The notes below the pieces were generated by a model. It worked only from the letters and a program-made list of their open reading frames with translations. It ran no database searches and was not told where the DNA came from. A stretch of 63,537 nucleotides of DNA, filler included, from Folioceros fuciformis (lineage: Eukaryota), in assembly GCA_049999805.1 (NCBI GenBank). It is 6 parts of 6 records of this genome, joined end to end, with 100 filler letters (N's around TTAATTAATTAA, not from the genome) between each part and the next. Parts side by side here need not be neighbours in the genome. Positions count along the whole stretch, not along the records: positions 47,859 to 61,673 come from JBNGIO010005248.1; 5 more parts are not named here. One strand, 5' to 3'. This document shows, piece after piece, positions 1 through 61,673 of the stretch (within the stretch, counting starts at the first letter, position 1; every line of letters starts with the position of its first letter). The position numbers and the translations under genes are program-made.

Positions 1-3000
1 TCATTTACTCATCCGTACAGAGTACTGGTCCTTTGGATGTAAGGCAAACTTACATCTCGGGCGTGGGGTTGAGGGGAACAGTTATTAACAATCCTGCCAC
101 GTTCTACATCAATGCCCGTGACTCATTTGGCAATTCTAAAAATGATCCTGGAAGTTTTGGTGAGCCCTTCCGGGTCCGACTTTGCAAGTCGGGACTCTGC
201 AATCTAGGAATGATAACTGTTGTTGACAAGCACAACTGGGGGGGAAGGTATGGTGTAACGTATGTGACTCCTGAGCCTGGTAACTACTCGGTTTATGTGT
301 CATGGTTTGGAAAGGATGTGAAAGGTAGCCCTGCATTCGTGCCTGTTTTGGACTCCATAGGCATGAGAGTTCTTGATGCTTCCAAGTTTATAATCTGTGG
401 GGGATTTCCTTTTGTGGACACTTGCCCTGGACTTTTTGGTTCTGTTGCCAATGAGGAGACTATCATCAGTCTGGATGCGGCGGATGAAAACGGCATTCCA
501 CTGTATGCTGGCGGGGCCGTGCTCAATCTGATTATTGACCCCCCGCCATATTCTGGTAGTGTGCAAGATTTGGAGAATGGAACGTATATAGTATCCTATG
601 TCATCAATGTGGCTGGAAACTACAACCTGACGCTCAAGATTGATGACACGGCATTCCTGAATCAGTCTCTCACAGTATTGCCTGGAGCAACAAGCTCGAA
701 AACCACCCGGCTGTCTGCGCAAATACCACGTTCATGCTCGGTTGGGACTGTTTTCTCAAGCCTGATTATTCCTGTGGATGAGTGGCTGAATGAGCAGGTA
801 TATACATCATCCTATCCTTTGTCAAATGACAAGTTCTCATTGGTGGCTACACCTAGCACGGGAGAGCTTGCATACGGGATAACATCCGTGGCTGCCAATG
901 GCTCCCTGATTGCCTCCCTGACCGTCACAAGGGCTGGAGCTTACAACGTGTCATGCACACTTAATGGCGAACCTCTATCAGGTTAGCATTTTTCTCAACG
1001 AGTCCTGTTAGACTGAGCTGATTTCTGTCAATAAGATGAAGGCATCCAATGAGTTAATGCGTGTTTGTGATCTCAGGTTCCAGTTGGATGCCGGTGGACT
1101 TCTACCCTGGGCCTCCTGTGGCCCACAAGAGTACAGTTCGCTTCCGCCCAGAAACTGTAGCAGGTGCATTGGGCAGCATAACAATCTATCTTCAAGATTC
1201 CTATGGAAACGAGCTAAGTGAAGGAATCAATTGCAATGCCACAGTGTCCAGCATTGACTCTGGTGTAGAACTGAGTCCTCCAGTCTGCGCGACATCATCC
1301 TCTTCCACCTTAGAACTGCTGTTTAACATCACTGAAGCTGGAATATACAACGTAAGCTTCATCACTGTTGATGATTCTGGACTTGGTGCTGCATTTTACT
1401 GCAATGTCACGGTTGTAGCAGATCAACCCTCAGCAGACACATCTACTGTAGTGGGAGGACAGGGGCTTACTAGTACAGTTAGCGGAGCTGAAAGTGTCAT
1501 GCTAATTACATGCCTGGACAAATGGAACAACACATGCTCAGGGGATACGTCACGCGCATTTGTTGTTGTTTTGGAGACGGAAACACTTCCACCTGTTTAT
1601 CCGACAATTTCATCTAATAGCACCTCCCAGGATGGAACGTTGGAGTTGGTGGCAAATTACAGTGCCCTCTATCCTGGAAATTATTGTTGTCGGATCTTAA
1701 TAGGAGACAGAGATTTGAATGGCAGCCCTTTCATTGTGACTGCCCCTATTCTTCCATCGTCTGCAGAGAACTCGTTTGCGGTCATGGACTCTTTTGGTGG
1801 AAGACTGAATACCTCTCTGTCAAGTGCAACTTTGGTGGCAGGCAGTGTTGGCAAGCTGAAAGTGTTCATTCGAGATGTTCGTGGAAATATGCAAGACAAG
1901 TCAGTCATTGACACACTTGATGTTAGATTCTATGCTGATCCTTCAGGTTAGTGACTGTGCTTCTTTGCACCATTTCACAAGGCCACAACAAGTGATCAGT
2001 TCTAAGCATATGACTTACGTTCTTTGAACAGATGGACGCAGTAGAAGATTGCTTGTGATAAGACTTTAGATTGTTCGTTGTGATAAGACTCTGTTGAGAT
2101 TGACTGATAATTCCATTGCAGGACTTCCTGCTACATACCCAGCTGACTCTTTTCCTTCTTATGGCTACCGAGGACGTGGGGATGGAACGTATGAGGTCAC
2201 TTTTTCGGCTACGATGGCAAAGTGCTTTGATTCAGAGTTGGGTGCTCATTTTGATCTCCCATATTTTCTTACAATCAGCTTGGTCTACGGGAATGGCACA
2301 TCCCATCAGATATCTGGCAGCCCATTCAAGTATCGGCTTATCCCTAGTGAAGTGAATGTAGCAAAGACTGAGATTATCCTGGGACAGCAATGGGCAGATG
2401 GTCACGGTTTAAATTGGAGGGTCGACATACTACCAAAAGATGCCTTTGGGAATATTGGGAGGTTTGTGCCAGCCCTAAATGTATCAGCAGCTGTACACCC
2501 TGCTTACGAAGACAGGATTGCCTCGTCAGACGGTAGGTGACCTCGTAAAACTTGTCAGTGACTTAACGTTGTGAAGTGGCTGGGCGTGGTTGTAACTTGT
2601 TGGCTTTTTGCCTTGTGTCACATTATCCAGGTAAGGCGGAACAGCAATCGAAGAAAATGTGGTCAGCTCTATCTTTGGAAGACAGTAAGCTTTTCCTGGA
2701 GAACACGTCTTCAGGATATGCAGAGTTTCGTGACCTTCAGATATTAAGCAGCGGAGAAATGCTGGCGGAATATATTGCGGCACCTCCACTCATTGTGGAT
2801 AACTATGACGGGACATACACTCTCACCTTTTCTGTTATGGTTGCAGGATTCTATAACGTATCTTTGTTCATAAATGATCATCTCATCGGAGGACCATGGG
2901 TCACCCTGTGTTACTACAGAGTTGATGCAGGTCCTGTTGATGTCACTCGAATAAGGCCCAGTGGACAGGGCCTTGGGGACAACCTCACAATAGCAGGGCA

Positions 3001-12000: not shown

Positions 12001-12463
12001 TGGCATGCTTTCCATCTTTTTCACCCCTGTCAGCCGGAGAATGGATAACTGCCTACTTTTACAGGGATTTGCTGGCAATTCTCGAGGTGTGTGACTTTGC
12101 ATTACTGGGTCCAGAGGCCGGCCTCTCCCAAGTCGTCTCCTTACTTGTGTCCTTCACCAACCTAGTAGCTCCTCTCAACGACACCTTCAAAATCCTCCAC
12201 TTCACAAATGGCACTCTCAGTTTGGATGGCTTCACGGAAAGCAACTACAGGGATGGCACAGTGTCACTGCAGTTGATCAATCTCACTACAGATTATAACA
12301 CTTCATCTAGGCTGGTGCTAGCTCAGGTTGCTAGCCATGCATCAACCACCTTCTCATCAGGGATGCATAGCATCCTGTTACCTGGATTTGCTCTACTCGG
12401 GCTGCTGTGTTGGTGAACTTTCGTCGTGAACAGGATCTTCCGCTACAACCCGCAACTAGATGA
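1..12463 (+). CDS. Giant multi-exon filamin/Ig-like repeat + PKD/REJ-domain protein (5' truncated, >3460 aa)
   Basis: Consecutive + ORFs join in phase via GT-AG introns. Exons: <1-981, 1077-1946, 2122-2532, 2631-3979, 4177-4468, 4573-4685, 4875-5239, 5367-5607, 5697-6737, 6870-7096, 7185-8019, 8129-8777, 8874-9092, 9216-9616, 9720-10301, 10434-11583, 11683-12326, 12434-12463 (3466 codons from position 3). Many filamin-type motifs (RDSFGN, D..NGTY.VSY..AG.Y, I.GSPF). REJ-like motifs: CDPLFLDASASSGSGGR, IIGGSRSV..SFTLEA..IDPD..YTWRC, PSGGTVT..GWT..LQYEFRY. Confidence 0.85.
10366..10430 (+). repeat. Compound microsatellite (CTT/CCT)n-(GTTTTT)n in an intron polypyrimidine tract
   Basis: Directly visible just before the acceptor at 10433. 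Confidence 0.9.
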
Positions 12464-30652: not shown

Positions 30653-33437
30653 TCAAGAATCGTCTCCACAAGAACATACCCCATCCTTAAACTGATGGAC
30701 TCGGTGAGCATCCCGGATCACGATCTCTCGCTGTTCAACCCTGGAGACGATCTTGGTACCGCTATGGCAATGTTTGCACATTCGAAGATTTTTAGTGATC
30801 AGAAGTGGTGTGCCAGAATGTGTATTAAGCAGACCAAAGGCTAAGGCCAGTTTCTCAGCATGTCCACAGAGAGCATCCTCTCTCTCATCACCTGCAACTG
30901 GCATCACCAATCCTGGATGAAGAACGCTTCCCTGCTCCAGCTTTTGATTTAGACTGCGCAGCTTGGAAGAAATATTATCCGTCTTGTCTCCCACAACAAA
31001 TTCATAGACACGCTTCTCCACTTCAATGATTGCCTTTGCAGGCTTCTTTTGAGCACCAGCAGATTTCCTCATCTGGTCTATCATGTTTGCTTCCTCCCAC
31101 CTGCCAGCATCTGCATACATATTCGACATGAGCATATAGCTAGCAGCCTGTTGAGGTTCATGTTTCAATAGCTGATTGAAGCAGCACCTTCCAAGTTCCA
31201 CATTCCCATGCTTTCTGCACGCAGTTAGCAAAGACGTCCAACCCACACTGTCATGCCTAAACGGCATGCTTCGCAGAAAATGTTCCGCATCATACAAGTA
31301 GCCTGCACGGCCCATAACGTCAACCATGCAGTTGTAGTGCTCAACCGAGGGAGTGAAACCATATGTTTCTGTCATTGCTTTAAAATATTGCTGAGCTGCA
31401 TTCACCAAGCCCACATGACTGCAGGCTGCAAGAAGGGATGTGAATGTCTTCGCATCAGGTTCAATGTCACGTTGTCGCATCTCCTCGAAACAGCGGATGG
31501 CCATTTGACACTCGTTCTGCTGACCATAGCCGTGAATCAGTGCTGTCCATGTTGCAACATCTCTATCTGGCAACCTATCAAACACACACTGTGCCTCAAC
31601 CAGGCTCCCAAATTCAGCATACATGTGCACCAAGGTGTTACCAATCAGGATGTCGGCCTCAAGCCCTCTTTCAAGGATCTGCACATGAATCTGCCTACCC
31701 TGTTCTCTAGCCCCAGAGCTGGCTAACAGTTTCAGAATGCTGACATATGTCACTAAGTCCGGGGCAATCCCCTCATCGCGCATGCTCATGAATAAATCTA
31801 GAGATTGTTGATGGAGCCCTGCCTGAGCGTACCCAGCTATCATGGCATTCCACGCCACCACGTCCTTGATGACCAGCTTGTCGAACACTGTGCGAGCATC
31901 CCCAAAACTCCCACACTTGGCATACATGTCAACCATGGAGCTGGCGACAAATGGGTCTGCGTCCAAACCTAGTTCTCGAATATGCGCACATATTCTCTCT
32001 CCCTCCTGCACGGCACCTACACTGCTACATGCTTTCAGAATGCTCACAAATGTGATCTGATCTGGCATTGTGCAGGTCTGCAGCATGAAGCTGTAAATCA
32101 TCAGAGCCTCATGCCCATACCCATGCTGAGCATATCCAGCAATCATTGTATTCCATGTAACCACATCTTTGGTTGACAATCTATCAAACATGCTGCGAGC
32201 CTCTTCCAAGCTCCGGCATTTTGCATACATGTCCACAAGGGTGTTACCCATGGAGACATAAGCTTCTTCAAGACCTCGCTCGAGAACATGAGCGTGAATC
32301 TCCTTGCCTTTCTGCAATGCCCCAGTCCTCGCACACGCTTTAAGGATGGACACAAAAGTGACCTTGTTAGCTGCTGTCGTACCAGCATTTTGCATCCTCT
32401 CGTAGAGACTAAGGGCTTCTTGCCCTTGCCCATGCTGAGCATAGGCAGAAATCATGGCACTCCAAGTCACCACATTCTTGGACGGCAACCTGTCAAAAAC
32501 TTTGCGAGCCTCAGCGACACTTCCACATTTAGCATACATGTCCACTAGGGTATTGGCAACAGACAGATGTGAACAGAAACTACTGTTAAGGACATCTGCG
32601 TGAACCATCTTCCCCGACGCCAAATCCCCTGTGCTAGCACAAGCTTTAAGAACCGCTACAAGAACATGATTAGTGGGCTTGGCATCTGCCTGCCGCATCT
32701 TCTTGTACAGATGCACAACGTCCTTCGCCTGCCCGTGTTCACCATGGGCTAATATGATAGAATCCCACATGAACGTGTCTGGTACTGGTATTTTCTTGAA
32801 AACTTTGCTTGCTTCCAGCAGATTCCCATGGGATGCATACATGCGGATGACATGGTTGGCTACAAAAGAATTGCAGTCGTACCCAGTCATCACTGAGAAG
32901 GCATGTATCCGTCTCCCAACGTCCCAATCCTTCTTCTCAATGCTCTTTTTGAGCAAATGGAACAGCATCTGTACGGATACACCACTTCTCCGCACGTACA
33001 GACTCTCCACTGCTTGGAAGGCCTCCTCAAGCCTTCCTTTGTCGCAATGCTCCTTCCAGACTGGAGACTCTGATGAGCCCTCATCCCTGCAGATCCTGCA
33101 TAGCCCAAAAATCAATTGTCACGGCAACCATGTCTGCTCTCTGCACTCCATGCCTCATGCTACAGGGTACGTCCTATAGTTGGATCAACCTTCAGGGCAA
33201 AAAAATGAAATCATGCAGTGGCCAGAAAGGGGATCAATACCTGGCAGACGTTTCAACAACACATCCATCGTGGCCACGGACTGCACTGTAGGCCGGCTCT
33301 AGCTCAGGCACTGGGTATGTTGCTGTGAGCATGTGTAGCAGGCATCTCATGTGAAGGATCCTGTGACCAGCCTTGTTCAACCGAAGGAAAGTTAAAGTTC
33401 CGGAGTGCACAGTGTGGCGGTAACCCGGCGCCAGCAT
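30653..33437 (-). CDS. PLS-class PPR protein with E1/E2 and a DYW:KP-type deaminase domain (organellar RNA editing factor)
   Basis: Exons 33437-33241 and 33095-30653 (phase-2 GT-AG intron; 879 aa). About 17 P/L/S motifs, then KKPAKAIIEV..FVVGD, LCGHAEKLALAFGL, KNLRMCKHCH and HQFKDGVCSCGDDS*. Confidence 0.93.
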
Positions 33438-41455: not shown

Positions 41456-44108
41456 TTACATTTTGAAGCGAGCGCTCAAGAGTTGCTTGACCTCTGCCAG
41501 CATTTCAAAGTTGTTTGCTGCAAGAATAAGGTCGTCAACATAGAGAGCAAGGACCACAAAGTGGGGGCCTCGAGACAGCTTGTATACGTTGCCGTCGGCT
41601 GTGCTCTGGGGAAAGAAGATGCTCAGGAGGTAGGCGTGCATGGTGGTATACCAAACCCGGCCACTTTGCTTAAGGCCATAGATACACTTTCTCAGCCTTA
41701 GGACTTTGCCTGGGTGTTGCTTGCTGACATAGCCTTCAGGCATATTCATGTAGAGCTCCTCGTCCATATTGCCGTAAAGAAAAGCAATCTTCACGTCCAT
41801 TTGCTGGAGCTCGAGGTCGAGCTCAACAGCAAGGGCAAGCAAAATCCGGATGGATTGAGCACGTACCATTGGAGAAAAGGTCTCATGATAGTCGAGGCCT
41901 TTAACTTGGGAGAACCCACGAGCCACCATGTGAGCTTTGAAGTGGGCTACCTGGCCTTGGGCATTCAACTTTAGCTTGAACGTCCATTTACATGAGATGG
42001 GCTTCCTCCCAAGGGGCGGGTCGACTAGCTCCTAAGTTTTGAGCTGAACCAAACTCTAGTATTCATCCTTCATTGCGAGCCGCCACTNNNNNNNNNNNNN
42101 NNNNNNNNNNNNNNNNNNNNNNNNNNNNNNNNNNNNNNNNNNNNNNNNNNNNNNNNNNNNNNNNNNNNNNNNNNNNNNNNNNNNNNNGGAGGATGCCGTC
42201 CTTAACATCCGAGTTGGCATCCACTATGTCAAGAGTGCGGGGGTCACCGTCCTCCAGAGGGAAGCTTGATAAAGGGTCTGAGTCAAGGGGAGCTGGGTCC
42301 TTGGCTGAGGCGGCTCCCTCTGAAGCTGGCTTAGCAAGCTCCATGAAGGTAACAGTCTGTGCAAGGGTGATGTTGTAGGTATCAAGGTCTACGAGTTTGT
42401 AGGCCTTGGTAGATTCAATGTAGCCTACAAAAATCAGCTTCCTTGCACTGTCCTCTAACTTGCGCTGCTTTTGTGCAGGGATGTGGGCGAAAGCTAATCC
42501 AAAAACCCGCAGGTGTTGAATACTTGGCTTCCGTTTCCAGAATACCTCGTATGGAGTGCGGGTGAGTGACGGGGTTGTGATGATCCGGTTCAAGGTGTAT
42601 GTGGCAGCCACTATGGCTTCAGCCCAGAAGCCCTGCGGAAGACTAGACCACAAGAGCATGCTTCAAGTCATGGAGAGGAGCGTCTGGTTCTTACACTCAG
42701 CAACCCCCTTTTGCTGCGAGGTGTATGGAACACTGAGTTGTCTTTGGATTCCTCGCTCGAGCAAGAAAGCATCAAACTCATTGTTTACAAACTCGCTCCC
42801 ATTGTCGCTTCGTAGGGTTTTCAGCAAGTTGCCCGTCTGACGCTCTACGGCAAGTAGCCAGTCCTTAAAATAAGCGAATGTGTCCCTCTTCAGGTGCATG
42901 GGGAAGGTCCACGAGTATCTGTTGAAGTCGTCGGTGAGGGTGAGATAGTAGATTGCCCCTCCCAAAGATGGAGTGTGAATCCTTCCCGATTTGTTAGCGT
43001 GGACCAGCTCCAGCACTAACTTTGCCCTCTGCGCATGTTTGGGAAATGGCGACTCCTTTTGCTTTGCAAGCACACATGGATCGCAAATAGGAAGGTGCCG
43101 GAAGCATCTTGGCAGAGGTTCCTTATATAGGTCCTGTGATGACATTGAGATCAACTTATTCTTGTTGATGTGACCAAGCCTAGTATGCCGGACTTAAGGA
43201 GGGCTGTTCAGCAGTGAAGACAAGGGGCTCCTATCTGCTTTCCAAGGTGAGCGTATAAAGTCCATCTTGAAGGATGGCTTTTAACATGCATAGGTCAGAG
43301 TTAGCTGGCCTGTAGAAACAGCAAGAGTCACGCGAGAACAGTATCTCCAGGGTACCGTGTCGCATGAGCTGATTAAGGGAAACAAGGTTCTTCCCCATTT
43401 GTGGAACATAAAGCACAGGCTTTAGGGTAAGTGTTGATCCGTTAGGTAAGGGGAACTCGCAAGTCCCTTGTCCAAGTATGGGTAGACTTTATTTGTTCTG
43501 CTCATCTCCCAAGAGCACTCTTTCTCTGATAGGACGTGTGTCCAGCTTGGAGAACAGAGTGTTGTCATTGCAAATATGAGCGGTGGCTCCACTGTCAAGG
43601 TACCACCCTCTGTCTTGCTGTGGCTGAGTATTGAAGCACACAGTGAGAATCTTGATCGTCTTTGTCTCCTTAGATACTGCTTTGCCTTTGACAGCTACAC
43701 TTGAGGTCTGGCGCAGGCCAAGCTTTTGTAGGTCTCCGGCCTTTTTCTTGCGGCATTCTCGTGCCCAGTGGCCAGGTGTGCCGCACCAATTGCAGTTACC
43801 TGCCCGGCGTGGTGGAGCTGAGGTCGACTCACCCTTGGAGGTAGTGGCCTGCTTCCCCTTGAGTTTCCTGGGCTTAAAACGAACAGCGAGTGCCTTATCT
43901 ACCTTGGGCTTGGACCCTCCTGCAGAATTGAGGCGGCTTTATTCGTGTTGTTAAAGGGCACCGATGATTTCCTCCACTGTTGGAGAGGAGGTGGATCCAG
44001 GGGTGCCGCGAGTTGACACAAGCACCAGGCTAGTGACAGTGTTGGTAGGAGGCCGGCAGACTCATGAGCAGTTGAGCAGTAGTGTCGCTCTCAATGAAGT
44101 GAGGGGCT
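41456..44108 (-). mobile_element. Ty1/Copia LTR retrotransposon internal region (gag end, protease, integrase, RT), degenerate
   Basis: Gag LLMSLPASY, Zn knuckle CNWCGTPGHWAREC, protease WYLDSGATAHICND, integrase LRSDNGSEF and PYTSQQKGVAE, RT QMDVKIAFLYG, IYGLKQSGR and LYVDDLI. Stops and frameshifts present. Confidence 0.93.
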
Positions 44109-47858: not shown

Positions 47859-48041
47859 GGGGGTCGGAACCACGCAAGTCGAGGCCTCGAACGGCTCTTT
47901 GCCTCGGGCCAGGACCTGAAGAATGCCTGTGCGCAGGTCATGTGTTTCCAGTACTCGGGGGTTTTATGTACATATACTGCGGTGCTGCACTGACTGCACG
48001 GAGTACTCTGCCCTTCGAGGTGGTAACACACCGGCTATGGG

Positions 48042-49533
48042 ATGGAGAACGGATTGTGTAAGCGTGTCACGTGTACTGATTGTCCATGTCTGCCGCGCCT
48101 GACCTCCAACGAGACGTTGTCCCCGGATCACGTGAAAACCACTCCATACTGGACGGTGTCCAGGGATGCAACGGCGGAGGCATTGTCAGAAGTGAAGGAG
48201 ATGCTCCAGGATGCAGTGCAGGAGATCATTTGCTTGAAAAAGAAATTGGAGCATGAGCGAATGCAGAATGAGGTCTCCGAAGACAGATGCAGACTGCTGG
48301 ACATGAAACGACGGCATTACAAAGCAGAGTGCCGCAGGCTGGAGCACGACCTGGAGGAGCTCAAATTCGAGCAACAGACGGAAGCAGGTGCGTGGCAGAA
48401 ACACTGGGAGGAGGTCCATAACGAATGCGAGATGCTGCGGACCGAGATCTACGCCCTTCAGACCGGCACTAGCATGATTCTCCACCCTTTGAAAGAGTCC
48501 TTGTCGGCGCAGAGTTACGTGGCTTCTCCTGAGGGACCGAGTAGGCTGCTCACTGTCTACTCCGGCGCCTACTCCTTCTCGGTGAATACGTTCCGAGTTA
48601 TGGCGAACAGCATAAAGTTTCGACTGGCTGGCGTCAGCAGGTCATTGGCTCGTGCTGTTGGTCATCCAGTGGACATTGCGCTGGACGCTGTAGGACTGTC
48701 GGACGGGAAATATGCCATGCACACACGCGTTTCAGAGATACTGTTCAAAGGTTTCGAGGACGAAAGCTTCACCATCCCAGAATGCCTGGTGCCGGAGGTG
48801 AACAGGGACAATAGACGGGATATTTATCTCAATCAGGTCCGGGAGCTGGGGACTTTACAGGATGAGGAACAGGTGATGACGAACTTCCACTACCTAGTTC
48901 AACAGTGTTTTCATACAGTCTCAAAAACAGAGCCCACAAGATTGATTCCCGAATTGTGTCCCACCAGTTGCACTAAAGTCGGGCTCTGCGGATGTGGAAG
49001 AGCAACATTCATGTGCTTCTGCCGAAGACAACTTCACCGGCTGGCTAAGTTCTTGAAACCTCAGCATGCTTTCTGGAGTCATGCAGCGGAGGAANNNNNN
49101 NNNNNNNNNNNNNNNNNNNNNNNNNNNNNNNNNNNNNNNNNNNNNNNNNNNNNNNNNNNNNNNNNNNNNNNNNNNNNNNNNNNNNNNNNNNNNNAGTAAG
49201 TTCACCTTCTTGATCCGTTCACAAACTTTGCATACTTCAAAGCATATTCGTCGAGATGGTGAAAGTTGGAACCACGAGATGCGGAAGCAGTAATGTCACA
49301 AAGTGGTGCTGGTTGAGCTGCAGGTGAAGAGGGGGTGTATCTTCGACCCCGACTACATGGCTTTCGCCTACGAGGATCCTGAGGTCACTTCCCAAGGAGT
49401 GGTCGAATCTACAATCATACCAGGATTTTACATAGGCGAAGTTGTTGTCAGAAGCCAAGTTTACGTGCGTCATGCTGTGATACGGGAAGCAGATACTGTG
49501 AGCAAAGAATTCCTATCAACGAATCAAGACTGA
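48042..49533 (+). CDS. IRK-interacting protein / GIL1-like coiled-coil protein (spans an assembly gap)
   Basis: N-terminal coiled coil, middle ILFKGFEDESF..FMCFC, and a C-terminal exon VKRGCIFDPDYM..V..TIIPGFYIGEVVVRSQVYV typical of IRKI/GIL1. Exon structure around the gap at 49095-49194 is unresolved. Confidence 0.7.
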
Positions 49534-50081
49534 AGCATTTGATCACACATTATTTACACATGATTTAGGGTAGCTTCCTATCAACCTCACACAAGGAACG
49601 GAACAAGAATACTGACAGCAACTGGAAAACACACTTCACTTGGAAACAGATTGCCCCACTCCCTGTCCTTCTTTGTAAAAACACGTAGTCACTGCAGATT
49701 GTTGCGGGGTAGCTATAGGAGTTGGCTTGACGTGGACGCAGGTCATCTAGGTGGTCATATCAGCGTAACCGATGATGTACTCAGTGTTATGGTTCAAGGG
49801 TAAAGGCTTACTCAGGGAGCAACATCGCTGGAAGTGAAGATTCAAATCTTGTTCAGCCTTCCCCCATGATCTTGATCGATATTTCCATACGCGGTGTCGC
49901 AGCAACTAACGTGAGAACTATCAGTGTCTCTGCGAGCGACAGGAACTGGCTGCCTGCCGGTGCGGACAGTGTGTGTGCCTACTCCACCGAATCAACCCAT
50001 CCTACAGTCAAAATATGCAACATCATGATCACCACAATCGAGATATCCAACCTCAAATTTACGGTTACCAGCATCGAAAAA

Positions 50082-50440
50082 TCTAAGCTCGAATCCAGGC
50101 TTCCCAGCATCGACATATTCAACCTCGAATCAATCCTGTAGCCAAAGCTGGCCAGAAGCTGGCTCTCCACCGGTGCGGGGTGTCGTAGTTCTACGACACC
50201 CCGCATCCACTCTACCAAATCCATCCTCTCTACCATGAACATATTCATCCTCGAATCCATCCTGTAGCCCAGACTAGCCTAACCAGGAGCTGGCTCTCCA
50301 CCGGTGCGGGCTGTCGTAGTAGTTGTAGTAGGACCTACTCCACCAAACCCTTCCTTTCTACCATCAAAAAAACCAATCTCGAATCCATGATGGCCATCAT
50401 CAAAACTCCAATCTCAATCCATCCTGCAGCCCAGGCTGAC
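50082..50440. repeat. Degenerate ~130-bp tandem repeats
   Basis: ctcgaatc.atcctgtagcc...agctggctctccaccggtgcggg..gtcgtagt at ~50122 and ~50250, with partial copies on either side. Confidence 0.65.
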
Positions 50441-52306
50441 CTTGGAAAGCTGAACGCATAGCTCGCCAATCATCTATCGCTCCGCAATTGCTGATGCCCC
50501 CAATGTCAAAGTACCGCACGTCGAAGCCACAGCTGAGCTGACATACACTGCTCCGGGATTGCTACAGTCCTTCCCCATGTCCCTTCAGCCTGTCCAGGCT
50601 CCTGAAATCGGTTCGGTATGGAAGCACTTGGGCCGCAAACGGCAGCCGAGGAATGCCTCCTGCTACAAAGAAATATGTACGACTGATGGCGTGAAACTGA
50701 TAGCAAATTGCAAACAGGCTGGTCTGGACACACATATTGCCTTCCCTGGAAATCGGGTGTGCCAAGGTCGCACACACCCCGGACTTCACAGACACGAAAC
50801 CTAAAAGCCTAAAGGGCAACAATTTCAGACGTTGCGAAATCCGTTGCGCGCAGCACCTTGAACCCGCGGAAGAAACCCCCCGGTGATGAGGATCGTATCT
50901 GATTCAGGCTGTAGTGGATCTTCAGACCAGAATCCCCACATAATCCAGGTGCATGAAACATAAGCCCTGAACTTCGACGCTGACGATGTTCGAAATTGGC
51001 GCCAAAAGGGATGGCCGCCAGTGGTCAGTTTCATCCCCGCATCTGGCCCGCGAATCTGGGTCCGAGATCCAGCCCGACAACTTCCACGAACACCATCTCA
51101 GCACAGGATGGGATGACACGGTTGGTTGCAGGAATGAACGCGGCCGCCACCACCGCCTCTTTCCAACTCAGCATGTACTGTACATACATACATAGCTGCA
51201 GTTTAGCTGGCCCCGCCAAAATAGAGGCACCGCCAAAGTAGAGACACCGCTGAAGAAATAGGAAGCGGAAATACATCAACTGTTCGTGAGTGAAAGGCCA
51301 CCCTGTAAAGTCGTGCACGATTCACACCGTGGCGGGGGCGTGGCAGGAGGGCGCCCCATCTCAATAGGAGGGAATCAGGATTTACACCCTACTCGCTGCC
51401 CAGGCGCACGGAACCTGGGCTAACTCGACCCTCCAGTAACGCAGCTCCCAAGCCTGCGAATGCAGGCAGGGACAACGGCAGTAACATGACTTTGCCTGAA
51501 AGGATCACACCTGACCAGGTGCATGGAACTGGAGCTACTCCAGATTTGGACAGCCCTTGGTTAATGGGTGTAGCTTTCATGCGCCTGCCAGGCCTGATGA
51601 GTCTGGGTAACAGTGGCCAGGTCCTCGGAAGGTTGGGAAAGGATAAGGATTTGGTGTGGCTTTATCGAAGGTGCTAGAGCTGGACGGATAGACAGCATAT
51701 CCGGAGCATCCAGCCTTTGTCACAAGGGATCCAGAGCGAGATACCAAGATATTAATATTTTGCAAGGGGGTGTCGGGTGCGGATAACTTCATACATACTG
51801 TACATATCTACTAATCCCGATCCTAATCCTAATCCTAATCCGAGATCCCGTGCACTAGAGTCGGGAAGATAACGTGTCCATCCCTCACAGTGTTGTGGTC
51901 GACGAGGCCATGAGCTGTCAGTCACAAAAGAAGGTAACGCAACGTGCTGCTGCTGCTCAGAAACCAGGTGCAGGACCCTGGGGCCTCGGCCCAGTTCGCT
52001 GGCCACGTCAAGCACGCGGACTGGAGCTGCCCACACTTGGCTTGCCGGTTCACCACGAGGCACGCTGCCTTTCCCCTATTTAATGGCCTGACTCGCCAAT
52101 CGGTTCAACGTATGTTTGTTTTCGTCTTGTCTCGTATCGCCTCGTCTCTGCTCTTCTCTTCTCTGCTCTCTGTGAACGAGATTTTCTCTTCTGTCACCCC
52201 GCACTACAGGTTCCCTTTCCCCTCAGCGCGTTCCCCTGCCCCGCGCGTTTTCGTGCGACTCGCTCATTCGATCCCGGGGGTGGAGTCGCGGTTTGCGCTG
52301 CGAGAT

Positions 52307-52660
52307 ATGGCCCATTGCAAGGAGGGTGCGCCGTCCGGGGCCCCGGGACGGAACGTGATTGCAGTAAAGAGCTGGAGCAAAGCGCAGCCGGCCGCGGAGG
52401 AGGGCCCTGTGAAGCTCTCCTGCCGCCGGCTCCACGTCAAGGAGACGTTCATGTTTGCACCAGCCTACGCGCATCCGGATGCTAACTCTTCGCCGAAGGC
52501 GAGGACGTTCGAGCTCTGCTTGAGGGACTATGAACCGCACTATGTGATTCCGAAGGTAGTGGAGCAGGAATCGTTCTGGATGTCGTTCGTGAGGGACAGA
52601 TTGCAGTGGTTCAATAGCCTCATGTTCAGATGGAACAGCTCCTATGTCGTGATCCACTGA
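52307..52660 (+). CDS. Hypothetical 117-aa protein
   Basis: GC3-rich ATG ORF, upstream TATTTAA at ~52077 and a candidate 5'-UTR intron (GTATGT ~52110 to CAG 52209). No recognisable domain. Confidence 0.5.
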   Translation: MAHCKEGAPSGAPGRNVIAVKSWSKAQPAAEEGPVKLSCRRLHVKETFMFAPAYAHPDANSSPKARTFELCLRDYEPHYVIPKVVEQESFWMSFVRDRLQWFNSLMFRWNSSYVVIH

Positions 52661-52840
52661 GCGTGGCGGGAGTTAGGCATCGTTCCTGCCTCAAAGCCTT
52701 CTTCCACCAAGCTCGTTCCTCAAGATCTGCGGGTCGTGGTTGTCCATGACAGGCGGATTTCTGGAACTCTAGCACCAATTCACAGGATCATGCTGCTCCG
52801 AGCTTCGAGCGAACATTATTGCGAGCGCGATCCGATAATG

Positions 52841-55343
52841 CTACTCTTCGTCCAGATGTTTCCTATGAGCTTGCGCACAAGCTGTGCTACAGTAAGAGTA
52901 AGAGTACCTTGTGAAAGGCACTTTGCCCGACAAAGATATTCCACAGTAAGAGCAAGGATCCAACGGAGACTGCGCCTGCGAATCTCCACTCCCGCCAGCA
53001 TTATCCAGGCCTGAAGCTCGACGTCTCCTCTCCGCGGCAGCAACTCGCATTTCCCGCTCCCGAGCAACCGCATTCAATAGGGCCTGAAGTACCCCAACCG
53101 AGTTAGACGTTGCCAGAATGATCACCAAGTCCACAAATCTTTTGGACGGCGCTCACCTGTTCATATGCCACTGGCTTTTGAGCAGCAATTCTTTTGTCCT
53201 TCCCAGCTCCATGCCGGACCTCTTTTGTAGCTGCAGCTGCCAACTCTGCGGCTGCCTTCGCCTCAGCCNNNNNNNNNNNNNNNNNNNNNNNNNNNNNNNN
53301 NNNNNNNNNNNNNNNNNNNNNNNNNNNNNNNNNNNNNNNNNNNNNNNNNNNNNNNNNNNNNNNNNNNNCGCCTGCAAAACCATGACCATAGCGCATATTC
53401 AACTACCGAGACCTAGACATTACACAAATACTCTAAACACATTCTGCAGTACCTGCTTCGCAGCCTGAGTAGCTTCCATCTCATCTGTGAGCGGGCTTGG
53501 AACACTGGCCGCATGCCAATCCCACTTATCTGGATACTCGGCCATAAATCTGCGGAAAACATTCCTCGTTTCCTTGTTCGCAGCGAGGGAGTATGGAGTT
53601 CTACCTCTTCCTTCTTTGGCACAAGGGTCGGCCCCTGATCTTAAAAGCTCCAAAACAGAATCTGTATTCCCAGATTTTGCTGCTTCGTGCAGGGCAGATA
53701 GACTGTCATCATTTGCTGTTTCCCGTAATTCCTCATTGTTCCTCGTCTCACTATGCTCTGCTTCTCTTTCAGAAGCTTGTCTGGAATTGTCAGCTCCTGT
53801 GCCAACCTTCAGTGCCACCTTTTTTTTACTCCCAGCTTCAACTTTTTCTGTCTTCGTACCTCCTTCCGAACTACTGGACCCCTTGTATTCCAAAGACGCA
53901 AGCATTTGAAAGACTCTTCTTGCTTCTTTGAAGGTAGGCCTGCGTGTTGTGAAGGGGATAGTCCGTACTCTCCGATCGCTTCTGCTCAGTGCAGCATCCT
54001 CACCACCAAAGAACGACTGACTATCGGACGAAGGAGCATGGACAAATATCATAGACGCTTCTCGAAGATGACTCTTCCATCTGGAAAGCAAATCTTGAAT
54101 GTCCTGCACGACATGAGAGGTGTCACAAATTCGCAAGGTCAGCATCCCAGCAGAGTCACTTCCTGATCGTGCATCAGCATCAGCTGGCCCAGTCAGCATG
54201 AACAAGGGATCCAACTTACCTTCTGCAGAGCCTTTTCATTGTAACGTCGAAGAGAGGCACCGGCAGATTTTGGTGCTCTGCCAGAGGCATCCTTCGTGGA
54301 CTGTCTTCCACCAGCTTTGGATCTCACAACATATCTGCAAACCATTTAATGAAAACGGAGCAGGCTTCCCAAATGTCACACAGGGGCGGCACCCTGTCAT
54401 AGACAGCTCCTACAAGATTGGAGGAACTACCTGTGAAAAGTCTGATGCGCAACAACTTCTCCACTTACAATGTTCGCCACTACACCAGCAAAATGCCCTC
54501 CGTTGGCAAGCAGAACCACCCAAACTTGTTGAGGCTGAGGGCCCTTCAGAACTCTCAACCTCCGTTCAAGCTCTCCATCAGAAACCGACAGCCCATCCGG
54601 ATCGTCATCTGCATACCCTTTTTCTCCTTGCAGAACCTCCTTCTCTGTGACCAGCACAGCACGCCACACAGACACCACTTGCCCTGAATTTTGCAGCAAG
54701 AACGAAATGTGGACTCTCCTGCTAACACCCACCCTAGGTTTCCTTTCACCCTCATCATCCTCAGAGTCATCGGCGTCAGACCCTGAAATGCTGGACATAT
54801 CATCGTTGGCACGCTGATGTTCGTTCTGCGCAAAAATCTCGAATTCCTCCTCACTTAACCCCGCTTTCCCATGTCCCTTCCGCTTGACCTGCAGAACAAC
54901 AAAAAATTCAAGCACATGCACACATGCGCTCCATCATGCCGACACTGGACACTGAGCTCCACAGAGCGACTTACGTTAAGCCGATGGAAATCAGACTTGA
55001 AATGGGACCTCTGCTGATCCAGACCCAAGAAAACGGAGTCGCAAGTCATACATGTCCAACGGTTCATCCCGTCCCCCTGCTCGGCTTCCCCCGACTCCAT
55101 CCTCGCCCCAGCAACGTCCACGACGCCAATCTTCTGCTCCTGAGCTGCCGCCGCGTTTTGCTCATCATCTTGATCCACCTGCTGCTCCTGCTCCTGCTCA
55201 GTGGGTGCTATTCCAGATGCTGCACCTCCTAATTCGGGAGACAGACTGTCCTCGCAATGTATCACCGCAGAATCGAAGAAATCATGGCTCACGGTGCATA
55301 CATCGTTGGACCTGGCAAGGTGATGCTGTGCATTGCGCCCCAT
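52841..55343 (-). CDS. VMS1: Vms1/ANKZF1 ribosome-quality-control peptidyl-tRNA release factor
   Basis: Exons 55343-54975, 54888-54431, 54334-54220, 54103-53453, 53371-53157 (gap inside), 53083-52841. C2H2 zinc finger (CMTC..QRSHFKSDFHRLN), VLRF1 domain (GGHFAG..HQTFHRYVVRSKAGGRQS..SAGASLRRYNE), ankyrin repeats and C-terminal CSYCG..YCSTACAQAH. Confidence 0.93.
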
Positions 55344-55683
55344 CACGCTCTCGCAACAAACCTGTGCCGCTTGCAAGCACCTAAATTGGACGCAGTGGAT
55401 GCTGTGGAGCACCTCTCGGCAAAGCCCCTAGAAATGCATTCCATAAGGCGCGCAACAACTAGATCCCGAATAAGTATGTACCTTTACGCGATTCAGAATT
55501 TACAGCTATACAGGGTATAATGAAATCGATATTTTAACAGCGGAACCGAAAACCTACACACGTATGTACTTAGTTTCCGGTTGACCTAGTGCCGAATAAC
55601 AGTCCTCGTCCTCTCCCCTACTTCGTGTCGGACGCTATCAGAGCCAAGCGCCGCGGAATCGAGCAAGGGCCGCACCGTCCGCG

Positions 55684-56452
<769 letters not shown>

Positions 56453-57120
56453 TTACAGCGAGCGTAGCGAGTATGTCCCTGAGAAAGTTGTGGACGAGCA
56501 ATTATGGGCACCTCTTGTGATGACTGTCAACATTTTGACACCGTTTTTTGAAAGGAGGAAAGCTGTCTTTTAGCTTCGATTTGTGCAAGTGCACACCTGT
56601 TGTGCCTATAATTTCAAACTCCGATGTCTTGATCCGCAAAACACGTATGATGGGACATGGATATGTGCTGAAGTCGGAAACGAGAACGCTCCTCCCCGCC
56701 GGAGGCCAAGGGCTGAAGGCCGAAACGAGTCTGTCTGACTGCTCTCATGAACTCGCGTACGAATTGGATCGGAATCTGTCGTCGATGGGATGGGCGCCTC
56801 GAGGTGGCCACCACGGAGGCTAAAGAGCTGCAGAACCACAGGTGAACGAGCCTGTGTACGATTTACCAGTTAAAAGCAAGACAGAGTCATTCAACCTTGC
56901 ATGCATAACTCCTACATAAACTTCAAGAAGAGTGGTACGGTCAATGTCTATTTATCAGAATATTTAGTATACATCCTTGTAAAAGTTCACTAAAACATAT
57001 CATATGTAGATTAACTTAATTTTAATTATATCACTTATTATTTATATTTATATTTATTTATATATTTATTTATATACATTACTACAATACATATATACAT
57101 TACTAAAATTTAATTATATT

Positions 57121-58838
57121 TTAATCTTCAGAGACAAATATGATTTGTCCAGGTTGAGACCAATGGCAAACGCTCAATGCCCCGGGCTTGCCATTCAATA
57201 TCCTCAAGGCTACATGTTTTGGGTTCCACTTACTTGTATCTGTGTGACATACTGCAATATTGGTGATGGTAAATCCAGGTTTCGTTGTAGACTCTAATGT
57301 GACGGCATACAACTTGTCCGTAGAACTAGAATGACAAAATGCCGTCAAAAATGGGAAGACTGCAGGATGACAAATTCCATGCTTGGATCCCACCCCAGCC
57401 TTGAGTTCCACCTTTGTTACTTTGAATGCACCTTTGCTGATGAGTTTGTCATTAGCTTCAAGAGTTGTGCTTACTAGTGGTGTAATAGCATTTGCATTCG
57501 TTGGGTTTGATAACACGAGGCCAAAAAAGTCAGCCATATCTTCCAGTGATGAGATGCATCCCTTGAACTCTCCTTGATTTTTGGACGTTCTATGATGTTG
57601 GCAAAGTTGTGCAGTTGTTTTCATAGACTTGGCCATGTAGGACTTGGTGGGGATGTGGAATTCCTCTAGAAAGTGAGGAACATTTTTCTCTTCAACAGAT
57701 CCAAAGGCTTGAACCAAGGCACGAGGAAGGAATGTCTTTGGATAAGCACTTTGCTTCAAGGAAGAAAACCTCCACGCCGGTACTTCATGTATGTTGTATA
57801 TGCCAGTGGAAGTAACCAAATCAGATTCACGAAACCAAAAGGATCGTGCTGCTTCATCTTTCACATTATCACGAGCTTCCTTCTTGGATGAACTTGTATG
57901 GACATCCATGTTGTTCATTTCCATGATGTTCATATCATTCATTTCCATGATGTTCATGTCATTCATTTCCATGACATTCATGTCATTCATTTCCATAGGG
58001 TTCATATCATTCATTTCCATGACGTTCATGTCATTCATTTCCATGATATCTTGCTCATTGGCTACCTTGATGTTACCATTGTCCATCTCCATGAGCTCAT
58101 TGTTGCTCATTTGTAACTCATCTCCTTGATTCATTTCCATGACATCCATCCCCATGTCCATACCCATGAAGTTGATGTCTTGGAACATGTTCATATTCAT
58201 CATATCATTCATATCCATATCCATCATCATGAACATAAACATCATCATATCCATGTCCATATTCATCATGAATTCCATCATTTCCAAAGGCATCATATCC
58301 GGTCCCATATCTGACATCAACATCATCATCATGAAATTACTCTCCGTAATTTGGGCACTTGGAACATTCATATTGTCCAACTTGTTGTTGCACATGGAGT
58401 TGGTCAATGAGCAAAACTGAGCGGCAACTGTTTTATCACGCAACAAAGCCTTGTTCTCAATCAAGTTCTTGAAGTCTTGAACTTGGGTTTCACTTAAGTG
58501 TGATGCCAAGTATTCCCAAGCTTGTGGAATATTGGTACTCATTTTCTCCCTCCAGTAGCTTAATACAGTTGGGTTGATACTGCTAGTTCGCACATCCAAA
58601 AGCCTTCTAGCAGTGTATGGTTGAGTCTTGATGGAAAGACATTGAATTGTGAAAGTAGCCTAGACAATGAAGAGACAAACAAGTTCAAGCTTTCTTGAAC
58701 AACATAGAAAAACACATAGCACAAAATGAAGGAGATTTACACACATCCATAAACCAAACACATCACACTAAACATGACACAACTTCTACTCACCAAAATC
58801 AACAAAAGCATGAAAAATTGTCCTCCAATGGTGGCCAT
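57121..58838 (-). CDS. Secreted BURP-domain protein with a Met-rich repetitive region
   Basis: Exons 58838-58794 and 58659-57121 (527 aa). Signal-peptide-like MATIGGQFFMLLLILATFTIQCLS. BURP domain FWFRESDL..FLPR..GEFKGCISSLEDMADF..CH-x10-CH..CHTDTSKWNPKH..VCHW. Confidence 0.92.
57901..58044 (-). repeat. 24-bp coding minisatellite encoding MEMN(D/N)M(N/D)(V/P/I) x6
   Basis: attcatttccatga..ttcat.tc units visible directly. Confidence 0.92.
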
Positions 58839-61152
58839 GATTCGTGGGATGAAAAGTAACTGTCAATACATAATCATTCTAACATTAGATAGGGAGCACA
58901 CAATATCAAACCTTGTAAACCACTGAGAGAGTGAATTAAATATAAATCAATAGAAGCACACATCTAATTGTACATAACATTGCTAAAACATTCTAAACAT
59001 CAAAGAACCAGTAGGCAAGATTGTGTACCAGTGAGTGAGAAAGTGACAAGCTTTGAAGAATGAAAGCACAAGTTCTCAATCTAAAAGTCTTAAGCTCAAA
59101 GAAGATTTGAACTGGGATGCTTGTCTAATGCAGAGACGTTCTCGTTATAATGGTTGACAATCAAACAAGACAAATGCTTATGACAACATCAAGTCGTTGG
59201 CAATTCAACCAAAAAATGGATCTCACAACATATTCTACAATACGCATGGTGTTAAAGTTCAGATGACACATGTTATTGTGCTATATGAGCTTATGAGAAC
59301 ATCATGCTCATCATAGCATTCATACTTTACAAAAATCTGAATAATAAACTAAATTAAATTATAATAATAGTAATATAAAATAAATAATTATATAAAATAA
59401 TATTTTACAGATATTTTTCAGGAAAAAATTTTCTTGGTAGTTGAACATAAAATGTTAATAGTGTGATGATGACTCAAGCTTATGAAAAACTAACACGTGA
59501 TTCGTGAATCTGGGCACATGGACATATCATAGTTGACTTTACTTCTGATAGTTGACTTTAATTTTAAAAATTATTTCAGGTTACGTTACCATGGAAAATT
59601 ATTGAAGCACATATGTCAACTATTTATCATAATGGTTGACTTGTGAGATTTATATTATTTTTAATAAATAAGATAAAGTATTTTACTTTTTGGATTTTCA
59701 ATAGATACAAAACGACTTACCAGAAGTGCACTCTAGACCTTTCTAAGAATATTTCAACCCCAATAATTGAAGATTGCTTGTACCTATAGTATTTCCCAAA
59801 AGATGGTAACGTTACGTCTTCGATTTCACAATGGCTTAACCCCAAGACCTTTTCAATTTTTAAGGTTAAGACAAATTATGAAAGCATGAGATATTTAGGA
59901 GGAAGATCAACAGAATTAATATTATATAATATTTAATTTAAAATTAGTATGAATTATGGTATTATTGTGTGTGGAGTGTATGGATTAATACGGAAATCAC
60001 ATAAAAATTGATTTGTATCAAATTATTAAACGAAGAAATAAAGACATCATGAAGGAAAAGGATAGTTGAATCCGTCGCCCTTAAGACAAAGGGAACAAGT
60101 TTTGGAGGAGGAGATCAAAGGTTGAAGGACTAAACATTGATGCTGCCTATCTTAGAACTACTTTTAGTGCCTAGGATATGAAAGTAGAGATTTAGTCAAA
60201 TTATAAGAGTTAAATTACATTGGGTAGTTTTTTTAGAATGATGTTCGAAAGGGGTTGTTCCTCTAATCTTTGGAGTAGATGGGACTTTCCATCTCTTCTT
60301 CCATAATAAAAGATTTTTCTTTTTTTTTTTCCATAAGCAAGTTAAAAATTGGAAACATCAATTCAACATGAAGTCATATATATTCATTTAAAAACTAACA
60401 ATTTCCATTATTCTTGACTACCTTTACTTTAGGCACCCCCATCTAAGTGCTAATCCAATCTGATTGAGGTGTAGGATGCTAAAACATAATTATATTAATT
60501 CATCATAAGATAAAAATCTACATTTGTTCTGCCTTCCTTGTGACCGTATGTTTTTACACCATTTTTCCATTATTTACCTTGTTATTATGTAATCCTGTTA
60601 TTATGTCAAGACATCCTTGATCAGACTTGGACGTTAATTACATCAATAAAGCTTGACTTCCTGTTTACCTTCTCGTCGACTTCACATAACGGGGATAGAT
60701 TTCCAGTTTTGTTGGCAAAAGGCGAAGGAAGGAATAGAAGTTACAAGTGCAACCGCACTGGGTTGGTTGATGGTTGTACGGCGAGGAACGGAATCGATCG
60801 CCGACTTGGGCCTCGATGCGACATCACGGGCCATCAAGAGACTATGAGAGCAGCGCAGCCAGGGAGTGAGGGGGCAAAGGAGTGCACTAGTGTACGATTA
60901 CCAGACGGCCTTAATGGCGACAGGTATTGACGTTCAGGCCGTTCCTTCAACAACCAGCTCCGCCATCTCCAGCGACTCCACCAGAACGCAACTCCAACTA
61001 GAAAAATACATTACTGCTTACCAGATCATTAAACTAAGCCTCCACTCTCTCGCTTCTGCGTGCGGTTCTTATCAGCAGCTGCTTGGGACTTGTCGTCAAT
61101 GGGAGCTTCAGAATCGTGTCTGGGAAGGTCCTGACAGGAGCCTGAGAATACG

Positions 61153-61608
61153 ATGAAGCCCCGGACTGATGTGCAGCTGGTGGTGGAGCACAAGAACGGC
61201 ACGGTCGTGGGCACCACGGCTATCGTGGTGGATCGAGATTCTCCAGATGTATTGTCGGAGCTGCGGTGCAGGTTGATACACAGCATGCCAGACCTGGTGC
61301 CGCACGATCTTCGCACGCGGGTGGGGGTTGACGAGAGTTCCGTGAAGGTGGAGTACAAAGACCGGAGTGGACGGNNNNNNNNNNNNNNNNNNNNNNNNNN
61401 NNNNNNNNNNNNNNNNNNNNNNNNNNNNNNNNNNNNNNNNNNNNNNNNNNNNNNNNNNNNNNNNNNNNNNNNNNTGGCTCACATCCGAATACGTGGAGGG
61501 GAGTCGCGTGTGGGAGCGACTCGGGAACCGGTGCTGAGAATTACGGTCGATGGCAACACCTGGAAAGAGCGGACAGTGCTGCAGGCGGCCGGGGGGGAGA
61601 GCAGATGA
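61153..61608 (+). CDS. Hypothetical protein, possibly PB1/ubiquitin-like fold (contains an assembly gap)
   Basis: GC3-rich ORF after a candidate 5'-UTR intron (donor GTATTG ~60923, acceptor 61137). VKVEYKDRSG weakly recalls the PB1 Y.D..GD motif. Confidence 0.4.
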   Translation: MKPRTDVQLVVEHKNGTVVGTTAIVVDRDSPDVLSELRCRLIHSMPDLVPHDLRTRVGVDESSVKVEYKDRSGRXXXXXXXXXXXXXXXXXXXXXXXXXXXXXXXXXXAHIRIRGGESRVGATREPVLRITVDGNTWKERTVLQAAGGESR

Positions 61609-61673
61609 CGTCTCGGTGCGCCAAGGTTACGTCTCGATCTGGAAGCTCCCACTCTACGGGAGCAACGCCGGGG

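Follow-up and report, generated by a model that had tools for sequence, protein, structure and literature searches.

A gene for a BURP-domain protein with an extremely methionine-rich segment lies on the minus strand of a 63,537-nt stretch of the genome of Folioceros fuciformis (GenBank assembly GCA_049999805.1), referred to below as the window. The window joins six parts of six records with 100-letter fillers. The gene falls in the part taken from JBNGIO010005248.1 (positions 47,859 to 61,673), and all positions given here count along the window. The feature is real, expressed and compositionally extreme, and sits suggestively beside a copper site; it is described here from a single gene in a single genome. 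Table 1 collects the coordinates.

The first 15 codons read MATIGGQFFMLLLIL and begin a hydrophobic, signal-like N-terminus, interrupted by one of the gene's two introns. Transcript support comes from one public sequencing run (X1), whose record does not state RNA; the splicing of the assembled contig is the basis for treating it as transcript. The run contains 0.81 of 190 sampled words from 57000-58900. One contig of 1724 nt, at word depth 101, matches 57188-58658 with 0 differences, omits exactly the 134-nt coding-region intron, resumes at 58793-58859, omits a further 169 nt (58860-59028) and resumes at 59029-59200. Both omitted pieces end CT..AC on the plus strand, that is GT..AG on the minus strand, so the contig is a spliced minus-strand transcript, and the second omission gives the gene an additional intron in its 5′ untranslated region (UTR). 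The sole disagreement with the window is a cluster in the 5′ UTR (59129-59144), where six bases differ and two single-base indels occur over 16 nt. Because the contig carries the Met-rich region unchanged, that region is kept in the mature mRNA. The gene is genuine, transcribed and spliced. Runs X2 and X3, from other organisms in the same study, gave no contig match at 80% likeness, which is not evidence of absence.

An open reading frame (ORF) on the plus strand at 57898..58116, with His-rich HFHDVHxI repeats, was rejected as a coding frame, since the introns are GT..AG on the minus strand. It arises because CAT is the reverse complement of ATG, and is thus a by-product of the Met repeats.

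Table 1. Coordinates of the BURP gene, its transcript and the regions of its product
Feature	Position in window	Strand	Basis or detail
Gene, two coding exons	58838..57121	-	527-aa product
5′ UTR exon	59029..59200	-	Transcript contig, reaching at least 59200 and running 14 nt past the stretch compared
5′ UTR intron, 169 nt, GT..AG	58860..59028	-	Contig joint 58859 to 59029, ends CT..AC on the plus strand
Exon with 5′ UTR end and first 15 codons, ATG at 58838	58794..58859	-	Sequence, contig, hydropathy
Coding exon a, 15 codons, then GTGAGT donor	58838..58794	-	Sequence
Coding-region intron, 134 nt, GTGAGT..AG, within the signal-peptide coding part	58793..58660	-	Sequence and contig joint (cut +1)
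Main coding exon b, 512 codons and TAA stop at 57123..57121	58659..57121	-	Sequence and contig
Conserved N-terminal module, YW..P..LS..FC..C, residues 30-95	58375..58572	-	Alignment A1, AlphaFold2
Met-rich region, residues 124-267 (54 Met in 144 aa; disordered by prediction; net charge about -31)	57904..58335	-	Composition, AlphaFold2
Six tandem 24-nt/8-aa units, residues 221-268	57901..58044	-	Tandem Repeats Finder and sequence
BURP domain (PF03181)	57133..57771	-	Pfam, predicted local distance difference test (pLDDT), structure match
Span of four Cys-His motifs: 57372-57367, 57336-57331, 57249-57244, 57168-57163	57163..57372	-	Sequence

The defining feature is the composition of residues 124-267, where 54 of 144 residues are Met (37.5%), accompanied by 23 Asn, 19 Asp and 13 Glu. 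Tyr, Trp, Cys, His, Arg and Thr are wholly absent, Phe is the only aromatic residue, and 32 acidic residues are set against a single basic one, a Lys. Outside it, Met accounts for 8 of 383 residues (2.1%), which gives 62 in 527 (11.8%) overall, so that the concentration of Met in this region is well beyond chance.

The region ends in six 8-residue units, five of them MEMNDMNx and one MEMNNMDV, each containing the motif MxMxxM; they are contiguous, with neither spacers nor distinct flanking sequences. Tandem Repeats Finder reports a period of 24 nt with 5.9 copies and 86% matches. A 72-nt period is also present (the 24- and 72-nt periods have 86-88% matches), as are weaker periods of 6-24 nt further 5′ in the coding strand. 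C content drops to 10.6% in the region, against 21.9% in the remaining coding sequence, and the other two reading frames contain 30 and 10 stop codons, so that only the coding frame can remain open. Judged by its sequence, the Met array arose by tandem duplication.

We asked whether the pattern of Met within the array departs from its composition, using 2000 composition-preserving shuffles of the region. Adjacent MM pairs were depleted (11 observed versus 19.9 ± 2.8 in shuffles, all of which had at least 11). This is the opposite of the outcome of plain (ATG)n slippage, which would yield MM runs. The region holds 25 MxM, 23 MxxM and 12 MxMxxM motifs; enrichment was seen for MxM (25 versus 19.7, fraction 0.05) and for MxMxxM (12 versus 7.1, fraction 0.029). 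When the six units are compared, variation is seen in 8 of the 24 nucleotide columns, including synonymous GAC/GAT and AAC/AAT changes, and none of the 8 falls within the 9 Met-codon columns (hypergeometric P 0.009; 0.039 when the free 8th codon is left aside). The older, degenerate half of the array (residues 124-183) is still 48% Met, and single-step derivatives of ATG make up 8 of the 90 non-Met codons of the region. These four small pattern tests point to some constraint on the Met pattern, in a single sequence whose repeat is young and whose units share ancestry and so are not independent.

By every feature examined, the rest of the protein is that of a BURP family member. Hydropathy supports a signal peptide (9-residue Kyte-Doolittle mean up to 3.2, residues 8-16), and the protein is predicted to enter the secretory pathway. 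The N-terminal module contains four positions (W36, P45, C83 and C90) that are invariant in alignment A1, which comprises the eight closest proteins, our query included. Pfam assigns PF03181 with E 7.4e-42; the score is 143.8 bits where the cut-off is 27, and the match spans 17-215 of the 216 profile positions. No family besides BURP is found in the 527-aa protein at E up to 1. The Cys-His motifs, at residues 445, 457, 486 and 513, are spaced CH-X10-CH-X27-CH-X25-CH. The published pattern is CH-X10-CH-X23-27-CH-X23-26-CH-X8-W (as given in PMC6102523), and the query fits it except for a final X8-F in place of X8-W; F stands there in 6 of the 8 rows of A1. The CH columns are almost invariant in a 62-sequence alignment (A2). 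BURP proteins are described as modular, with a signal peptide, a short conserved segment, an optional repeat or variable segment and a C-terminal BURP domain (PMC9121072, PMC6102523), and the query follows this plan with a hydrophobic N-terminus (by hydropathy), the N-terminal module, the Met-rich repeat region and the BURP domain.

A preliminary description of the locus had reported a stretch of about 145 residues with about 54 Met plus Asp, Glu and Asn, six terminal MEMNDMNx repeats free of Tyr and Trp, and an intact BURP domain with all four CH motifs. Direct counting and the Pfam match (E 7.4e-42, CH at the four residues above) bear this out, with 144 residues, 54 Met, 0 Tyr and 0 Trp, and with one of the six repeats reading MEMNNMDV. 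That description had also staked its reading on the existence of a transcript that retains the Met region; the spliced 1724-nt contig, which spans the region with 0 differences, supplies one.

AlphaFold2, run with the 62-sequence alignment, gave a mean pLDDT of 71.1 and a predicted template modelling score of 0.67. The N-terminal module is helical with pLDDT of about 89-98 (residues 31-90), and the BURP domain, from about residue 270, is mostly above 85. Values drop under 50 for residues 96-118 and 143-264, the repeat part taking the form of coil in the model; the Met region is thus predicted to be disordered. The only Foldseek match in the PDB is the peanut BURP cyclase, AhyBURP (8sy3/8sy2, E 6e-9), which to our knowledge is the only solved BURP structure. 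VIA-align against 8sy3_B aligned 189 of 200 residues over the model range 31..512 (Z 13.5, rmsd 3.5), with the next entry at Z 3.9. As the aligned range covers both flanks, the Met region falls between two matching parts. In the model it would form a long flexible loop between the N-terminal module and the BURP domain, placed relative to the copper cleft by topology.

To see how widely this architecture occurs we made an exhaustive profile-free search of 1.84 billion protein representatives. It returned 691 proteins at E ≤ 0.001 and six at E ≤ 1e-30, with a best identity of 36%. The seven best relatives (P0003-P0009) are transcript-derived proteins, and the nearest ones with a name are from Ginkgo, Adiantum, Welwitschia, Marchantia, Wolffia and others. 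Of the 137 retrieved relatives with a length of 250 aa or more, 132 have all four CH motifs. In alignment A1 the N-terminal module and BURP domain align throughout, and the large insert occurs in the query alone. Met content was compared across 149 retrieved BURP relatives from the search total of 691. None shares the Met-rich region; counted over 60-aa windows, their peak Met numbers lie at 1-7, P0009 excepted (11), and the query reaches 30.

The enrichment in P0009 is of another sort. Its variable region has 28 Met in 227 residues, in an MP-rich Ser/Met/Pro/Asn repeat (11 MP dipeptides) with 0 MxM and 1 MxxM, and His is replaced in all four of its CH motifs (C-E, C-R, C-Y, C-T). It is sister to the Met-poor P0004 and not to the query, so its enrichment is a separate event of a different kind.

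Other searches agree. The word-indexed protein search (lengths 281-896 aa) gave 3535 candidates for the whole protein, none at E ≤ 0.001, and 237 for the Met region alone, none at E ≤ 10; for the BURP part it gave one match, P0002, at 34% identity. For the whole protein the ESM Atlas returned nothing but BURP clusters, and for the Met part no usable match. A metagenome scan with the single protein yielded 78 pattern matches and no relative. When alignment A3 was used, 13 BURP loci were found at 26-41% identity; none has a Met-rich stretch, since no forward frame upstream of the match exceeds 6 Met per 60 aa. Among everything retrieved, the Met-rich architecture is, by sequence, unique.

A maximum-likelihood tree of the BURP domain was built from 35 rows (the best full-length hits plus P0002, P0044 and P0084, with 115 other listed hits left out). 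A 10-row clade unites the query with a Marchantia protein (support 98/84); it is nested in one of 15 rows that also takes in proteins of Adiantum and Welwitschia (100/99). The remaining 20 rows, mainly from seed plants, form a clade apart from these two, and a quick tree agrees.

Several of these relatives have peculiarities of their own. P0009 may be a BURP protein lacking the copper site and carrying its own odd repeat. In P0008 the first two CH motifs read LH (Leu for Cys), so that a disulfide staple of the AhyBURP type would be missing. At metagenome loci L004 and L005, a forward frame upstream of the BURP match reads as a repeat containing Lys, His and Cys (..KPxCHxxQ/RK.K..).

What might the array do? 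We tentatively favour, as the single most likely function although with less than even confidence, an antenna or buffer that would recruit Cu(I) and is tethered to the BURP copper site; beyond the sequence features, we infer all of it. The usual variable or repeat module of a BURP protein would here have become a 144-residue, disordered and very acidic Mets-type array in which Met is the only ligand type, offering a multivalent, low-affinity thioether surface for Cu(I). Tethered at both ends next to the BURP domain's own four-histidine copper cleft, the array could capture Cu(I) in an acidic, oxidising secretory, vacuolar or apoplastic compartment, and the captured ions would be buffered or passed to the BURP His sites. 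At three Met per site, the capacity would be roughly a dozen or more Cu(I) ions.

The motifs are those expected of such a site, as the region has MxM, MxxM and MxMxxM clusters (by the counts given above) in a flexible, exposed segment (pLDDT <50). In hCtr1, MxMxxM is reported to be a motif that relies on Met only, is selective for Cu(I)/Ag(I) and stays competent at low pH, where His sites fail, including pH 3.5 (PMC9117721), and N-terminal, extracellular Mets motifs are described in plant COPTs (PMC4039008). In the bacterial copper oxidase CueO, by the published account, the Met-rich domain binds Cu+ transiently, recruits it from strongly chelated forms and is dispensable with free Cu+ (PMC11494321); it is largely disordered, and a larger version performs better (PMC12041951). 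On the BURP side, AhyBURP is reported to hold four Cys-His motifs in a cleft with two type II Cu centres and to be active with Cu(I) or Cu(II), using O2, and its core peptide overlies the copper cleft and reacts in cis (PMC11253845). A soybean BURP protein is reported to bind Cu2+ and other soft metals in vitro and to increase Cu and Cd tolerance (PMC4047006). The copper reading offered in the preliminary description is therefore plausible, the MxMxxM motifs and the CueO precedent lending it indirect support.

A number of observations weigh against this reading. Known Cu-trafficking Met clusters usually have fewer Met, often together with His. No orthologue with the Met region was found among the proteins retrieved, where no relative exceeds 36% identity overall or 41% in the BURP domain. 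The tree sets the query beside P0006 (87/80), which like the other nearest rows has a short, Met-poor variable region. P0009, the only other Met-enriched relative, has lost the CH His and so gives no support to a Met-to-His hand-off. As the repeats are recent DNA duplications (86% matches), the motif enrichment and invariant Met codons are perhaps partly inherited from one founder unit. GTAC, the core of copper-response elements, is not enriched in the 2 kb upstream (3 versus about 6.5 expected), a result that is weak either way, and of the window ORFs scanned (20 and 15 in two scans) none in the neighbourhood is related to copper.

The array might instead be a tolerated low-complexity expansion, an ATG/GAT/AAT-rich unit amplified by replication slippage or unequal crossing-over, with no Met-dependent function; it would persist only by keeping the downstream BURP reading frame, in a variable module that accepts almost any repeat. 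In its favour are the clear DNA-level tandem structure (24 and 72 nt, 86-88% matches), the skewed base composition (C 10.6% versus 21.9%), the stops in the other frames (30 and 10), which leave a single frame able to remain open, and the absence of the region from the 149 retrieved relatives and the 13 metagenome loci. The variable region is also described as the most variable part of the BURP family (PMC6102523). We nevertheless consider this unlikely. Simple (ATG)n slippage would give MM runs, yet MM is depleted (11 versus 19.9 ± 2.8); none of the 8 variable repeat columns lies in a Met codon; Met still makes up 48% of the degenerate older half, where codons one step of decay from ATG are few; the 144 residues include one Lys but not a single His, Cys, Tyr, Trp, Arg or Thr; and the transcript includes the whole region.

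Other functional readings fare less well. A sacrificial oxidant sink, in which exposed Met is converted to sulfoxide and shields the copper/O2 site, or the wall or vacuole, from reactive oxygen species, would have a precedent in MrpX, a Met-rich periplasmic protein reported to serve as a sacrificial target of hypochlorite oxidation, with a reductase to recycle it (PMC4436054). The 54 Met lie in a predicted-disordered, and so probably solvent-exposed, region of a secretory protein, BURP cyclases are described as using Cu and O2 with radical intermediates (PMC11253845), and staining for reactive oxygen species was reported to be altered in rice overexpressing PpBURP2 (PMC9121072). We think it quite improbable all the same, as no methionine sulfoxide reductase was found among the window ORFs scanned, a sink that is not recycled is stoichiometric and costly, and scavenging does not require regular MxMxxM spacing. 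We rate still lower the chance that the region is a sulfur or nitrogen store, or the precursor of small Met-rich peptides, a reserve released by cleavage and then broken down. Storage vacuoles are a site of accumulation for some BURP proteins, and the Asn and Asp residues (42 of the 144) would be asparaginyl endopeptidase sites. SALI3-2, too, is reported to be vacuolar (PMC4047006). Against storage, only one copy is seen in the window, Pfam at E up to 1 finds BURP only and hence no similarity to storage families, and the fusion to an intact four-CH BURP domain is left unexplained.

Least likely of all, and in our estimate highly improbable, is the proposal, one of several in the preliminary description, that the gene encodes a new fused burpitide precursor, the repeats being cores that the BURP domain cross-links via Met sulfur or other non-aromatic chemistry. 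Their position would suit it, for repeated cores occupy the variable module in fused cyclases such as SkrBURP and the AhyBURP core overlays the copper cleft in cis, as both are described in PMC11253845, and all four CH motifs are present. The class is, however, defined in that source by Tyr/Trp side-chain cross-links, and the 144-aa repeat region cannot be placed in it because it has 0 Tyr and 0 Trp; the proposal was not upheld. The 8-residue units, moreover, abut with no spacers or distinct flanks, no Met-based BURP chemistry appears in those parts of the burpitide literature that the searches reached, and the 15-row clade of the query (100/99) stands apart from the seed-plant clade on a tree that has no characterised cyclase.

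Among known systems, AhyBURP (a USP-type cyclase, PDB 8SY2/8SY3) has the same fold as the query, by the Foldseek and VIA-align matches above (E 6e-9; Z 13.5, 189 of 200 aligned), the four Cys-His motifs and the same order of N-terminal segment, variable part and BURP domain. Sequence similarity is weak, with a phmmer E of 9e-5 over 86 residues and 23-26% identity in structural alignments, and AhyBURP cyclises a core peptide containing Tyr/Trp, whereas the variable part of the query spans 144 aa dominated by Met, Asn, Asp and Glu. SkrBURP of Selaginella kraussiana, compared by its published description and not by sequence, is likewise a non-seed-plant protein, of 525 aa, with 8 tandem cores between its N-terminus and BURP domain (PMC11253845); unlike those of the query, its cores (e.g. 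VLFYPSY) carry Tyr that forms ether cross-links. By its BURP domain the query groups with the bryophyte-type proteins, in the 15-row clade with Marchantia, Adiantum and Welwitschia (100/99). The moss protein PpBURP2 is reported to be apoplastic, and the original (moss) BURP proteins are described as having no repeat domain, PpBURP2 having only three of the four modules (PMC9121072); by that description, not by sequence, it differs from the query, which has a large repeat module.

The closest match to the proposed mechanism, as far as the published descriptions go, is the Met-rich domain of CueO from E. coli and Hafnia alvei, likewise a Met-rich disordered segment on a copper enzyme, beside a substrate copper site. 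The H. alvei domain is given as that of E. coli plus 22 residues and 6 Met (PMC12041951). Unlike the query region, it belongs to an unrelated fold and kingdom and is much shorter. Ctr ectodomains have far fewer Met, and usually His as well. As described, Ctr1/COPT ectodomains share the MxM, MxxM and MxMxxM motif grammar (PMC9117721, PMC4039008), and the family is marked by a transmembrane domain with MxxxM-X12-GxxxG (PMC4039008), which the query lacks (Pfam finds BURP only, and there is no hydrophobic segment past the N-terminus). The 10-kDa delta-zein, with 22.5% Met codons (PMC10546030), is also a plant secretory-pathway protein of very high Met content. It has no homology to the query, where Met is confined to one disordered domain (37.5%) fused to a BURP domain, and neither zein/prolamin nor 2S-albumin families matched in Pfam at E up to 1.

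Both the BURP family and its modular plan are established; the Met-only, Mets-motif repeat module is new as far as our searches reach. Literature searches, which did not extend to BURP sequences in supplementary tables, found no description of a Met-rich BURP architecture, the preliminary description having likewise known of none, and searches on BURP, bryophytes, ferns and copper gave nothing relevant among the matches listed. BURP domains have been shown to be copper-dependent peptide cyclases only since 2022. By which route they obtain their copper along the secretory pathway, and which roles belong to the numerous BURP proteins that are not cyclases, are open questions in the field, and the natural fusion of an intact four-CH BURP domain with about 54 Met in Mets-motif spacing offers a test case for built-in Cu(I) recruitment, as recently shown for CueO. 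Taken further, the array would be the first eukaryotic enzyme-tethered, Met-only Cu(I) antenna or reservoir to feed or buffer its own four-histidine BURP site, within the acidic secretory pathway or the apoplast, a convergent counterpart of the CueO Met-rich domain; we regard this as possible but rather doubtful. In a bolder variant the BURP copper site would also oxidise or thioether-cross-link these Met, which would make them a non-aromatic class of BURP substrate. The region is in any case among the most Met-dense plant polypeptide segments compared (37.5% against the 22.5% Met codons of delta-zein), and may interest those working on sulfur-amino-acid nutrition. If it is merely a tolerated expansion, it still shows the extent to which a BURP variable module can drift. 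For context, the review consulted states, in the part that treats ferns, that no RiPPs (peptides made by ribosomes and altered post-translationally) belonging to its five classes have been identified so far in true ferns (PMC11253845).

Around the BURP gene, the scan of window ORFs turned up no gene related to copper, RiPP precursors or proteases, and Rfam matched no family in the whole window. The nearest recognisable gene is VLRF1/ankyrin, at 53420-54933.

The window, which has 21 runs of N (1360 bases in total), contains several other coding regions. Its PPR-DYW gene, GEX2-like gene and copia and MULE elements clearly mark it as land-plant DNA. Long plus-strand frames at 3-6842 and 9696-12416 have Filamin/GEX2 Ig-like repeats and are followed by REJ-domain frames (E 6e-10, 2e-8). 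These may form one very large GEX2-like gene, in which the REJ match looked unusual for a plant. Two mobile-element sequences are intergenic, both on the minus strand: a MULE transposase fragment at 27744-28568 and a Ty1/copia reverse transcriptase with an SH3-like domain at 41456-42662. Also on the minus strand, at 30653-33118, is an uninterrupted 821-codon PPR protein that bears an E motif together with a DYW deaminase domain and is a candidate factor for organellar RNA editing.

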